Shown here piece by piece: positions 33,048-38,167 of a stretch of DNA of 64,000 nt. The DNA is taken from positions 186,001 through 250,000 of the forward strand of contig NW_027191411.1 in the NCBI RefSeq assembly GCF_041146345.1. The letters are read 5' to 3'. Each line of letters opens with the position of its first letter. Position 1 is the stretch's first letter. This DNA is from Neodothiora populina. Taxonomy: Eukaryota. The notes below the pieces were generated by a model that was not told where the DNA came from, did not search any database, and saw only the letters and a program-made list of their open reading frames with translations. The position numbers and the translations under genes are program-made.

Positions 33048-33163
33048 CGACGCGAGCAGGATTTGAACCTGCGCATCCGAAGATAATAGATTATACTAGC
33101 AGTGCCGCTTACGGGAGTGGACAAATTCTAGTCTATCGCCTTAGACCGCTCGGCCATCGCGCC
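33048..33163 (-). tRNA. tRNA-Ser(AGA) with 34-nt intron
   Basis: Minus strand GGCGCGA-TGGCCGAGCGGTCTAAGGCG-ATAGA-CTAGAA-[intron]-A-TCTAT-long variable arm-GCAGG-TTCAAAT-CCTGC-TCGCGTC-G. Mature length 82 nt, G discriminator, downstream T-runs. Confidence 0.93.
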
Positions 33164-33719
33164 TTTCATCATGTGTTGACGCTATCTCATCATCAATATA
33201 AAGTCTTCCTAAAAGCTGGGTGTTGATGCTTGTTGGTCTTCGTGATCAGCTTGGGTGATACGGTAGAGATTGGATCTCCTATACTTTGTCTTTTTGGTCA
33301 TTTGTATTGTGTGAACCTTGCCTATAGTCCCCGGATACATGTTATCATATTGAAAAGACTGGGAACTTCACTTGAGAATACTTGGTAATCAAGTACAGAA
33401 CGTCACAAAAAGGTCGATCGCTTTGAACTCGAAGAGTGTAATGTAAATAACTAATCAATACCTGTTTCCTCTTTTCCGGTTCCGTATTTCTCTTCCTCTT
33501 GCCACGGTGATTGTAAGCCTCATTCGATGTATATGCAGGACCAACTCCAATCCGCAATTCCACCCTCCATACACACGACCGGCCTTCTTCCATACCTCAC
33601 AAACACCACTGCCACGATAAACGCGACAGCGTCTCTTCTTTTCCGTCAAGATGATCATCGCGATCCCGAAGAGCCATGTGTTTTCTCTCTGTTATTCCTT
33701 TTTCATTTCTTTGCATCAT

Positions 33720-36179
33720 TCAATCAACTCCCAAATCAGCCACCATGCCCTGCTCTTCTTGTATCTGGCCCCCGAGGCTATAACTCGCGCGCCACCTCAT
33801 CTTGACTTGACGTCCTGTGCCTCGTTGTACGCCTTGAACGCGAATGTTCTGGGTGATGCCGTCGCGTTGACCTGGTTGCAGATTTCGGCCTGATTGCGGG
33901 TCGAGTTTGAGAGAGTAGCCCTTTTTGTTACTGATTAGTCCATGTGCGCATCTATGAGAATGAAGAGTGTATGGATTGAGCAGGGAAATTACCTTTGTTA
34001 CAGCAAGCTGGAACGTCAAGTCAGTAATGGGCTGCGGTGTGTTGTTGCTGATCCTGCTCTCGATGGAAAGCCAACCATTTGCACTGGCTGATCGCGAAAC
34101 ACTGAACACGGTAGCAATACTCGAGTTTGTGACTTGGATCTCCTTCTTGCTCTCTGGTTGAGGCAAAGACGAAGTAAAAGCCCACTCTTCGTCGCCAAAG
34201 GCCCCGTTACCACCACCATTGCTGATGAGTGAAGTTGGTCTGGGCTGTTGCTGTTGCTGCGTCTGAGGTCGCTGTTGCAAAGCTGGCGACCCTGGAGCCT
34301 TGTAGGCCTGCTGGAACTGAAAGGGAGACCCCGATCTGGAGGTGCTGGTGAGGGCAGCGAAAGGATCAGCCTTGTGCACGGCTTGCTGCGGGGCTTGCTG
34401 CACCGGTGGAGGAGGAGGAGGCTGCTGAGAGAACAGATTCGGCTGAGGCGAGGCAGGGACTGAGGTAGGTTGTGAAATGGTAGCAAAGGCATTGTAGCTA
34501 GGCTGCGGGGTGTGCGACGGGGCATTGAACTGAGAGAGAATGTCGGAATTTGAAGTTCGCGCCTTGTGGCCCTGAGCCGACGGAGTCGACGATGAAGGAC
34601 CGGCGCCAGTCAGATCTGCCAATGCATTGCTGGGTGAGCCGAGAGACAGGGCACCTCCAGAGCCAAAGCCCGTGTCGCCCGGACCAATGGACAAGCCAAG
34701 CAGGTCGTCCTCGAGAGAGTTCCCTTTCGGCGGGGGTGGGGGAGGCTCAGAGGAAGAGGAAGCGGGAGCATCGGCGGCAGGTTCTTGGTCAAGAGCACCA
34801 AAATCAATGAGAGACAGCTCGTTGTTTGCGCCCTTCTTGACACCGGCTCCGCTGATACCAAGCGTTCCCTGCTTGATGTTGTTCGCGCCTTGAATGTCTC
34901 CCTTTTTGATCAACTTGTAACGCTCGATGGTGCGGTGAATGCTGTCGTTGATCTCGAACAGTTTTGCGACTGCTTCGTGGTCCTCGGATTCTTCTTCGCA
35001 CATCCTCTGGATCTTGGGCTGCGCACTGGCAAGCGCGTTGGCCAATTCCTGGGGGCGTGGTGAGTTGTGATTGTGGACAGATGGGCGAAGAAAACAACAA
35101 ACCTCGAATACATCTCCTTCTTTGATCTCATCGCCCGCCTTGTAGCCCTGCAGCATCTCTTCGAGCAGCCTGGCCTTTTGCTGGATCTTGCCCACCTCTT
35201 CGGCAGCCTTTGCGCGGTAGTCGGTCTTGTGTCGGTTGTCGAATCCGGCCATGACCTTCATGAGTTTGTTTGCCTCTTGCAAGTCGTGGGGAGTTCCGCG
35301 TCGAATGAGTTCCTGCAGCTTGGCGGACTGGTGTTGTCTTTCCTCTTCCTCCATCTCCTCGGCGGATCTGAGATTCTGTGTGATTGAGAGAAAGTCAGTC
35401 ATCTGTGTCGCGGGCGGGCCGAGAGCAAAGGGTCGCATACATCGCTAGGATTGAGAACTGCGGCATCCTCTTTCTTGACTTCGGGGAAGACATAGCCCTT
35501 GTAGCTCAACAGTCTGTGCATGTCACGAATGAAGCCCAGATCCTCCTTGTACTTTGACGTCTGGCAGATGGTGGAGCGCCATTCCTCAATCAACTCGAGG
35601 ATCTTGTGTTGCACGCGAGTCGGTCGCATCTGAGGGCGCTCGGGGAAGCGACGGACGAGCTCATTGAGGAACTCCTTTGTGCTGATCTGGAGGTGGAAGG
35701 GGTAGCCGCAGTTCTTGACGCAGATGTCGAGCAGAGACAGGGCGAGGAGAGAGACGTTGGGGTTGCGGTGATTGACGAGTTGCACAATGCAGATGGCCGC
35801 TTCTCGAGGTCTGGACGATGGTGATGGTGGTTCAGTGGCTAGACAGCAAGAGAGAGAAAGCCAGATGCAAAGAGAGAGAAAGCCAGATGCAAAGAGAGAG
35901 AAAGCAAGATGCAAAGAGAGAGACGATGACTTACGCATTGCCCTTTTTCGCATTGATCAAGTCGGCAATCTCGAGACACAGCGCCAGGTTGGGCTCATAG
36001 TTCTGAGGATCGCAAGCATTTTCTTTTGGTACGAGTCAGACATCTGGTTCATCATTTGCGGGTACCAGAAAAGAGAAAGAAAGAAGAGACTGACGGATGT
36101 ATCGCTGCAGCGGGGTCTGAGGTGCCTCACCAGGGGCGAACCTGTCCCTGGCGGCGTAACGAGCCGATGCCGCCTCCAC
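33720..36179 (-). CDS. GGA2: GGA clathrin adaptor (VHS, GAT, GAE domains); apparent GTG start
   Basis: VHS: LQRYIQNACDPQNYEPNLAL...CVKNCGYPFHLQISTKEFLNELVRRFPERP. GAT: AKLQELIRRGTPHDLQEANKLMK. GAE: ITDLTFQLAVTK|GYSLKLDPQSGR...VKMRWRASY. Multiple introns. The symbol names the family; GGA1 versus GGA2 cannot be distinguished. Confidence 0.92.
35849..35922 (+). repeat. ~22-bp tandem repeat (AGAGAGAGAAAGCCAGATGCAA) x~3 inside a GGA intron
   Basis: Seen directly in the second GGA intron. Confidence 0.85.
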
Positions 36180-36916
36180 TTTGACGGCTTTGGTATTCGT
36201 CGAGGTTGTTTTGTTGTTTGGCAAAGTATGCAAGGCAAGACGGAAACGATGTCAGCTGAGGGGTTGTTTACTATCGCGACGAGAGGGCACACGGCGGCGT
36301 GCTGGCCACTCGGCACTGGGGAAGAGAGTGAGGTAGAGTGAGATGTAAGTGTTGACCAAGGTAAGATACAAGGCACGAGCAGTATGGAATAATACGCATG
36401 TATAAGGTAATGGAAGGTACACAAGCTCATGCCATGCCAGTCCAGTCCATGCCGGTTCGATGCCATCATAAGCCAGTGGAACTCAAGGTGACCCACTCGT
36501 ATCTCTACAGTACCGTGTCTCTACAGTACCGTATCTCTCACTCACACGCCAAACTCGGCCCGACCTGATCCGGCCTCAGGCTCGAGAGAGGGGGTAAAGA
36601 TAGACGGCGGCCTCAGGCTCGCATTCCTTGCACCGTACTTGTGCAAAGTACCGGTACTTGTAGGTGATGCTCTTGGCACCCCACTTCTCGGTGACGTCGG
36701 CCCTTGATGAAGAGCTTCCATTGTGAAGGGCAACTGCCCGATACAGAACACAGATCACAGTCATTGATTGTTCGGAAATCCTGAGCTTCCTTTTTTGGCT
36801 CTTGCCGCCACTGTCTGAACAACGACAACACTGACTTGTCCATATTTCCAAGTCATTACCCAGAAACGGACAGAAATCTCTCTCCAAGAAGATTCAGGAG
36901 TTAGCAAAGAAGAAAG

Positions 36917-37666
36917 ATGGTTCGCCACAAGAAAGACCACGCCGGCAAAGGCAAGAAATTCACCACCTCGCGGACCGCACGACCCATGCCACCCGCCAGA
37001 GGCACAGAAGCAGCGACAGAAGACGGCGGCTCTGCTTCAGGCGGCAGCGGCAGCGGCAACCGACGTCCACCCTACAAAGCCGCAGCATGGGATCTGAACC
37101 ACTGCGACGCGAAGCGCTGCTCGGGCAAACGCCTCATGCGCCTGGGTCTGATGCGCGAGTTGCACGTCGGCCAGAAGTTCCAGGGCATCGTCGTTTCTCC
37201 CAATGCCAAAACCATCTGCAATCCTTCCGATCGGGAACTGGTCGAGACGTACGGAGCGGCCGTCGTCGAGGCCTCGTGGAACAGAATCGCCGAGGTTCCC
37301 TTCGGCAAGATCGGAGGTCCCCACCAGCGACTACTGCCCTATCTTATTGCTGCCAACCAGACCAACTACGGCCGACCGTGGAGGCTGAACTGTGTCGAAG
37401 CTCTCGCTGCTTGTTTTTTCATTGTGGGACACAGAGAGTGGGCCGAGGACATTCTTTCGTCCTTTTCCTACGGTCCTTCCTTCATCAACATCAACGAAGC
37501 AGTGCTGAAGCGCTACGCTGCCTCAAAAGACGAACAAGGCATCAAAAAAGCCGAAGAAGACTGGCTGGCCAAGATCGAGGACGAGTACAACGAAGATCGA
37601 GCAGAGAGAGAAGCACACAAGAAGGACGTGTGGACTGGAGGAAACACGAATCGAACACGCAACCTA

Positions 37667-37697
<31 letters not shown>

Positions 37698-38167
37698 CGG
37701 AAGACGGAGAAGGAGGAGAGCAGAGCAAGGACGAGGAAGACTCGGAAGAAGAAGAAGAGGACGAGGAAGACACAAGAGACCCCTACGGCATGCCGCCCTC
37801 AGACTCCGACGACGAAGAAGAAATGGCCGAACTCCGCCGCCGCGTCCTGGCCTCGAAACCTTTCGTCAATCCCACTCCCGCCCCTCAACAACAACCCACC
37901 TCCGACTCCGACTCCGACTCCGAGTCGGGCGCGAGACCGAAAGCCCACCGCATAATCTCACAAAACAATCAAGACTCGGACGCAGAGTCGGGCTCGGATG
38001 TTGACGACAACGACGAAGACGACGACTTTGACAACATCATCAACGCCACTCCGGTCACAGATCGAACGGGGATATTACGCAAAGAAAAGCAGAAGAAACA
38101 AGACGCCGTCAGCGCCAGGTTCTCCAGAGCTGTTGTTGACGCGCCTTCAAAGTGGCCGCCGTCTTGA
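36917..38167 (+). CDS. TSR3: 18S rRNA aminocarboxypropyltransferase Tsr3
   Basis: WDLNHCDAKRCSGKRL, RLLPYLIAANQTNYGRPWRLNCVEALAA, and an acidic tail. Confidence 0.95.

Follow-up and report, generated by a model that had tools for sequence, protein, structure and literature searches.

How a conserved gene is translated when no AUG stands where its protein should begin was the question raised by a gene on the reverse strand of a 64,000-nucleotide stretch of the Neodothiora populina genome (contig NW_027191411.1, positions 186,001 to 250,000; hereafter the window, whose numbering is used throughout). By its sequence the gene is a GGA clathrin adaptor of 690 amino acids with the architecture VHS-GAT-hinge-ear. 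A first-pass annotation had proposed that it initiates at a GUG codon, and the proposal was supported: we infer from the sequence, with high confidence, that the GUG at 36179-36177 is the main GGA start.

The start codon, the transcript and the protein

The GTG lies in the context GCCGTCAAA-GTG-G and opens the frame (V)EAASARYAARDRF. The context had been called near-ideal, which holds for the A at -3 and the G at +4 (AAA-GTG-G). The frame is closed upstream by a TGA at 36254-36252, and 24 sense codons were counted between the two, close to the 25 first estimated. As had also been claimed, no ATG intervenes; none was found in any frame from 36398 to 36056. The first in-frame Met of the spliced frame is codon 119 (ATG 35629-35627, in RPQM, with C at -3), and five out-of-frame AUGs precede it in the spliced mRNA. 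The earliest AUG of the mRNA, at +88, is out of frame (+1), has A at -3 and opens a 20-codon open reading frame (ORF).

Four sequencing runs (X1-X4) were compared with the window over positions 33600-36900; the coverage of X3 and X4 lies outside the start region. X1, a DNA run that is possibly the source of the assembly, contained no substitution and read the GTG identically. X2 comes from the same sample and is listed as 'DNA?', and its 2568-nt contig lacks five GT..AG introns, which identifies it as cDNA. Spliced as in this contig, the frame yields the 690 residues. The first block of the contig covers 36349-36095, unbroken through the GTG and with zero differences, and its joint (36095/36022) agrees with the predicted junction of exons 1 and 2 (YI/QNACDP). 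The 27 extra letters that adjoin this block are presumably library adapter. An unbroken exon 1 without AUG or differences argues against an upstream ATG-bearing exon and against a sequencing error, the two outcomes that the first-pass annotation had named as fatal to its claim; X1 and X2 both read GTG. In the dominant mRNA a 170-nt AUG-free leader thus precedes the start position, which reads GTG. The parts of the gene are as follows.

36180..36349 (-), AUG-free 5' leader of 170 nt in exon 1; 36349 is the 5' end of the cDNA contig
36252..36254 (-), in-frame TGA, 5' limit of the GGA frame, from the sequence
36231..36233 (-), upstream in-frame UUG with a purine at -3; possible minor start, not conserved as protein
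36222..36224 (-), upstream in-frame UUG, A at -3, +4 C; could be a minor start
36198..36200 (-), upstream in-frame ACG in a poor context (U at -3)
36177..36179 (-), GTG (AAA-GTG-G), proposed as the sole functional start, from cDNA and orthologues
36095..36179 (-), coding portion of exon 1, with the conserved EAASARYAARDRF head and the beginning of VHS helix 1
36023..36094 (-), intron 1, 72 nt, GT..AG, from the cDNA contig
35935..36022 (-), exon 2 (VHS), from the cDNA contig
36017..36019 (-), earliest mRNA AUG, A at -3, opening a 20-codon ORF out of frame (+1)
35811..35934 (-), intron 2, 124 nt, from the cDNA contig
35441..35810 (-), exon 3 (VHS profile positions 41-141), from cDNA and profile match
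35627..35629 (-), codon 119, the earliest in-frame ATG, 3' of six of the eight VHS helices
35103..35375 (-), exon 4 (N-GAT/GAT), by alignment to orthologues
33993..35048 (-), exon 5, which aligns to orthologues over GAT, hinge and the beginning of the ear domain
33720..33920 (-), coding portion of exon 6, ear domain, ending at the TGA stop, from the cDNA contig

The homologues retrieved were fungal GGA adaptors, and exon 3 of the window matched Pfam VHS (E 2.6e-35). The nearest orthologue, a Delphinella protein (P0001) from a Dothideales group in the tree, was 79% identical over 627 columns; its VHS, GAT and adaptin C-terminal domains scored over the cut-off and its N-GAT just under it. In orthologues Pfam VHS spans approximately residues 21-164 and is followed by GAT and the ear. 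The order VHS, GAT, gamma-adaptin ear was recovered, the GAT and ear of the window being placed by alignment to orthologues. A single-sequence fold had low confidence (predicted local distance difference test, pLDDT, 46), and an AlphaFold model of the Aureobasidium pullulans orthologue from a 76-sequence alignment was used instead. In this model six VHS helices precede residue 120 and two follow it, so a product begun at codon 119 would lack most of the VHS domain, which agrees with the earlier statement that the RPQM methionine lies deep inside it. Residues 1-20 of the model had pLDDT values of 48-60 and thus show no structural role for the conserved N-terminal head.

Besides this gene, a search of the genome returned two VHS matches, three in all, and by their motifs the other two look Vps27-like and Hse1-like; only one GGA was found. 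The VHS domain binds cargo tails in yeast (PMC3571872), and Arf-GTP-dependent recruitment to the Golgi and binding of cargo and clathrin are described for MoGga1 and mammalian GGAs (PMC6794486; PMC2175099).

Codon 1 in the DNA of relatives

Relatives were taken from metagenomes as the best 80 of 375 loci. Codon 1 was readable in 70 of these, as ATG in 68 and as GTG in two (L042 and L043, ATC-GTG), or, counted as 58 distinct contexts, 57 ATG and one GTG. The alignment of 5' ends that the first-pass annotation had suggested thus placed the start exactly at this codon. The motif could not be recognized in ten loci, most of which have contig ends close to the match; in the one inspected (L026:500-700), a fungal GGA runs at codon 3 into an open frame unrelated to it and lacks the start region, and this locus was dropped as probably an assembly chimera. 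A pattern scan of prokaryote genomes gave three bacterial matches, which were unrelated, had a stop in frame and were rejected.

Over codons 2-13 the window differed from nine hand-picked loci by 5-9 synonymous and 0-1 non-synonymous changes, and from the Aureobasidium loci by synonymous changes only. The border was sharp: 12-13 of 13 residues were conserved 3' of the GTG vs. 0-4 of the 24 in-frame codons 5' of it, the latter in a comparison with eight relatives. By this pattern the exon 1 head is translated, codons 2-13 are under purifying selection and conservation begins at the GTG.

The -3 position was tallied over 57 loci after duplicates and L003 were dropped. Orthologous sole starts carried A at -3, in agreement with the GTG here, in 24 of 29 cases, and a purine was present in 26 of 29 loci without a Met at codon 8 (Met8) vs. 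16 of 28 loci with it (Fisher p 0.007). This association is a hint only, since the loci share ancestry and several of the pyrimidine cases, which end in YAG, are possible acceptors. In loci with both Met8 and Met17 (L002, L004, L005, L010-L012, L016-L021, and L029), position -3 of the first AUG was often a pyrimidine; several of them end in CAG or TAG, consistent with either a weak start or a leader intron.

Position 1 in the proteins of relatives

The N-terminal motif was present in 199 of 378 proteins, with Met at position 1 in 178, Val in 13, Leu in seven, and Gln in one. Val occurred in Delphinella, several Aureobasidium species and Saccharata, and Leu in Sphaceloma, Myriangium, Elsinoe australis, two Penicillium, Talaromyces, and Trichophyton; these are the residues of GTG, CTG, and TTG. 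The Gln belongs to a model of Elsinoe ampelina whose upstream text matches no relative, and it is probably a modelling artefact from an invented exon. All 19 Val/Leu cases with a preceding residue imply a purine at -3 (18 A, 1 G), although they represent about six lineages rather than 19 events. Truncated models of the codon 119 type had been called in Elsinoe australis and Aureobasidium (P0003, P0125).

A search seeded with Penicillium added 102 proteins, of which 96 were annotated from Met8, two had Leu1 with Met8, and four, from Pleosporales or Helotiales, had Met1. Models from Penicillium, Talaromyces, and Trichophyton (P0209, P0250, P0297, P0362) read Leu-EA[AT]SAR before the annotated Met8. 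The models suggest a seven-residue, near-cognate-initiated extension in Eurotiales/Onygenales that has escaped annotation.

Evolutionary history of codon 1

A quick IQ-TREE analysis covered 68 rows, namely the window and 67 hand-chosen members of 276 proteins, with the first exon trimmed. Dothideales and Myriangiales formed a clade of 18 rows (Shimodaira-Hasegawa-like approximate likelihood ratio test, SH-aLRT, 95) with Val at position 1 in nine, Leu in three, Gln in one, Met in one, and four unreadable; Val or Leu thus stood in 12 of the 13 rows counted as readable at this position, Met in the other. Codon 8 was Tyr in all readable rows of the clade, which therefore has no back-up AUG there. 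The sister clade of 13 rows was Met1 throughout.

The lone Met of the clade is A. pullulans, within Aureobasidium (support 100) and nested among Val rows, with its own branch there unresolved. Two loci (L037 and L040) match A. pullulans models. Compared with L042 and the window, L037 (2250-2270) and L039 have gained two nucleotides, so that GTG has become GT-ATG with C at -3. The other A. pullulans-type locus, L040, also has ATG at codon 1 through such a 2-nt insertion, again with C at -3. The A. pullulans-type ATG is most simply read as a return to AUG, in a context that is weak.

Saccharata has Val1 and Tyr8 and groups with relatives annotated from Met8, which suggests that these, too, may have a near-cognate codon that annotation has not seen. 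Near-cognate states were seen in no fewer than three separate regions of the tree: Dothideales plus Myriangiales, Saccharata, and Eurotiales/Onygenales. Codon 1 thus appears to toggle between AUG and near-cognate codons across Pezizomycotina, with codon 8 as a putative back-up Met in other lineages.

Proposed mechanism and reasons for keeping a weak start

In the mechanism that we propose, the small ribosomal subunit would load on the AUG-free leader of 170 nt and scan, and a fraction of the scanning ribosomes would initiate at the GUG (A at -3, G at +4) with reduced efficiency. Initiator Met-tRNA would most likely be used, giving the same MEAASARYAARDRF N-terminus as in AUG-starting orthologues. 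Since five out-of-frame AUGs stand before codon 119, ribosomes that miss the GUG would mostly be absorbed there and yield short peptides rather than GGA, and full-length output would equal the efficiency of the GUG. Incorporation of Met and a low yield at this codon are both probable; initiator Met-tRNA is used at near-cognate codons generally (PMC5666671).

It is possible, although we hold this less firmly than initiation at the GUG itself, that selection kept the start weak to cap GGA dosage or to couple GGA to start-codon stringency. In HeLa cells overexpressed GAT-containing fragments strip other Arf-dependent coats (PMC2175099), which makes a dosage cap plausible. The levels of eIF1 and eIF5 shift the use of non-AUG codons, and the poor context of the eIF1 AUG is linked to autoregulation (PMC3326321); the eIF1-like gene of this genome (L108, G000:C15) has U at both -3 and +4 of its AUG. 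A link between eIF1/eIF5 stringency and GGA, suggested in the first-pass annotation, is plausible. A broader version, which we consider doubtful, is that codon 1 of GGA is a translational rheostat conserved in filamentous ascomycetes, with initiation kept weak by selection through interchangeable means: a near-cognate codon in a strong context, an AUG in a weak one, or a leaky codon 1 with Met8.

Several observations weigh against the GUG start or against a special purpose for it. Three other in-frame near-cognate codons (UUG, UUG, ACG) lie 5' of the GTG, and a near-cognate codon was read as DNA in two taxa only, the window and L042/L043; all other Val/Leu cases come from protein models in which the codon itself is not visible. 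The transcript is represented by a single cDNA contig from one sample, and contigs drop rare isoforms and cannot fix the cap site. Near-cognate yields were approximately 2% for Ustilago maydis pgd1 (PMC7214817) and below 1% in vivo for a cpc-1 reporter (PMC5487733). Downstream structure was unremarkable: the fold at +13..+72 was equal to synonymous shuffles (z -0.06) and to dinucleotide shuffles (z 0.57), a further downstream value was z 0.47, L042 folded worse than shuffles (z 1.48), and no stable hairpin of the PTEN-beta type was found approximately 14-18 nt downstream. The out-of-frame AUG at +88/+91 is also present in ATG-starting relatives and is therefore not a GUG-specific adaptation; in this comparison L058, L068, and L073 were not splicable at that place and L080 was spliced poorly. 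Many lineages begin GGA at a well-placed ATG with a good context, which means that a weak start is no universal requirement. Lastly, the genome-wide start-context model failed, since no enrichment at -3 was seen among 37 proxy starts from 264 kb of this genome, and its scores were discarded.

About as likely as selection for dosage or regulation is that the GUG is merely tolerated as nearly neutral and regulates nothing. GGA would then be needed in small amounts, and the AUG would have been lost, perhaps under the cover of Met8, with compensation by context. The use of good-context ATG by whole classes (Lecanoromycetes models, Capnodiales- and Sordariomycetes-like loci), the reversion of A. 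pullulans to ATG and the absence of a special hairpin or a GUG-specific AUG trap are consistent with neutrality. It fits less well that near-cognate states recur in three or more separate regions of the tree, that they persist across two sister orders although one substitution would restore ATG, and that the sole reversion seen has a poor context.

Alternative origins of the N-terminus

Three further explanations concern the start itself, and all are very improbable. The least improbable is that translation begins mainly at UUG 36233, UUG 36224, or ACG 36200, with the GTG as an internal Val codon. All three are in frame without a stop before the GTG, and both UUGs have a purine at -3, but the conservation border lies exactly at the GTG, 68 of 70 loci have ATG at the GTG position, and the non-Met residues at position 1 are Val or Leu only, bar the one Gln. 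In Neurospora UUG is reportedly weaker than GUG, according to Wei et al. 2013. Minor extended forms from the upstream codons are possible.

Slightly less tenable is a hidden splice that would supply the AUG, through an upstream ATG exon or through an intron from A/GTAAAC (36271) to the AAG ending at 36178, joining A to TG. The G of GTG is the G of this AAG, introns 1 and 5 end in AAG acceptors, about 94 nt upstream there is a donor-like GTAAAC, and public models of relatives often invent such first exons. These invented exons, however, have no sequence in common, and the cDNA contig is unspliced across 36349-36095, which contradicts the splice for the dominant isoform. No CTRAY branch motif occurs from 36250 to the AAG, and an acceptor above 36254 would meet the in-frame TGA. 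L042 and L043 have ATC-GTG without AG, so the A/TG splice cannot work there, and the divergent neighbour transcript, starting near 36821, leaves approximately 470 bp for a hidden exon.

Least tenable of all is a mainly VHS-less protein from codon 119 or a decaying gene: codon 119 is the first in-frame AUG and truncated models have been called from it, but it has C at -3 behind five out-of-frame AUGs, exons 1 and 2 are correctly spliced and conserved with codons 2-13 under purifying selection, and this is the only GGA found in the genome. Reassignment of GTG to Met was rejected by inspection, as an internal GTG encodes a Val that aligns to Val (RPTRV).

Comparison with known systems

The closest precedent is mammalian DAP5 (EIF4G2/NAT1), whose main ORF is started solely at GUG; the main ORF of TEAD1 likewise begins only at a non-AUG codon (PMC5666671). 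Judged from sequence, GGA resembles DAP5 as an essential-type main ORF with a GUG start and no functional AUG: its mature mRNA contains no in-frame AUG giving a functional protein, a near-cognate codon in favourable context stands at the conservation border, and that codon is conserved in relatives within the clade, most other lineages having ATG. Unlike DAP5 and TEAD1, GGA is a trafficking adaptor rather than a regulator of translation or transcription, and unlike that of DAP5 its start toggles among AUG, Val-coding and Leu-coding codons in orthologues.

Among fungi, a conserved GUG start is described for Aspergillus nidulans areB (PMC6494665), and near-cognate N-terminal extensions for Neurospora crassa cpc-1 (PMC5487733) and U. 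maydis pgd1 (PMC7214817). Like these, GGA has a good-context near-cognate codon, conserved across fungi and missed by annotation, but cpc-1, areB, and pgd1 extend a working AUG isoform, which GGA here lacks. The Penicillium, Talaromyces, and Trichophyton GGAs (Leu1 with Met8) would be of the cpc-1/areB/pgd1 kind, with a seven-residue extension. GGA shares with fungal aminoacyl-tRNA synthetases the repeated exchange, at a single position, between a weak AUG and a near-cognate codon (DualAUG vs. DualNCC; PMC7049704). The synthetase start sets the ratio of mitochondrial and cytosolic isoforms, whereas in the GGA clade no targeting peptide and no second isoform were identified.

The GGA described here resembles yeast Gga1/Gga2 and Magnaporthe oryzae MoGga1 in the VHS, N-GAT, GAT, and ear domains of its orthologues and differs in its start codon. 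It is single-copy, as is MoGga1, which is described as the sole Arf adaptor and whose deletion lowers conidiation and virulence (PMC6794486), so the GGA family matters in filamentous fungi. In the literature covered, which excluded Wei et al. 2013 and supplements, no GGA was found to be described as starting at a non-AUG codon. That study is said to list conserved near-cognate extensions in Neurospora.

Neighbourhood of the gene

ATGs lie 5' of the cDNA end at 36399-36469 (-); three of them open an ORF of 157-170 codons that is out of frame and runs over the GTG, and a longer transcript including them would be repressed. A divergent neighbour, presumably TSR3-like by its motifs, occupies 36821-38167 (+). 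A second X2 contig begins near 36821, and about 470 bp separate the two genes. The shared promoter region holds a 16-nt x 2.6 repeat (36498-36538), and the X1 contig is one base short in an intergenic homopolymer run at 36791. Intron 2 contains a tandem repeat (22-nt x 3.5, 35848-35923). By eye, an intron-containing tRNA, probably Ser(AGA), lies at 33048-33163 (-); ARAGORN reported no tRNA in the window.

Significance

Public GGA models of Aureobasidium, Elsinoe, Sphaceloma, Myriangium, and Delphinella have N-termini that are invented or missing, and those of Eurotiales/Onygenales may be seven residues short. The fungal precedents for non-AUG initiation covered here add optional extensions; here, the sole functional form of a single-copy adaptor appears to need it. 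Strong AUG, weak AUG, GUG, and Leu codons, with or without Met8, together with the Aureobasidium reversion, form a natural series in which the question of why a weak start is kept becomes directly testable in closely related, culturable fungi. If codon 1 does act as a rheostat, the supply of the Golgi-to-endosome adaptor in Dothideales and Myriangiales would depend on start-codon stringency, and membrane sorting would be coupled to eIF1/eIF5 status and stress.
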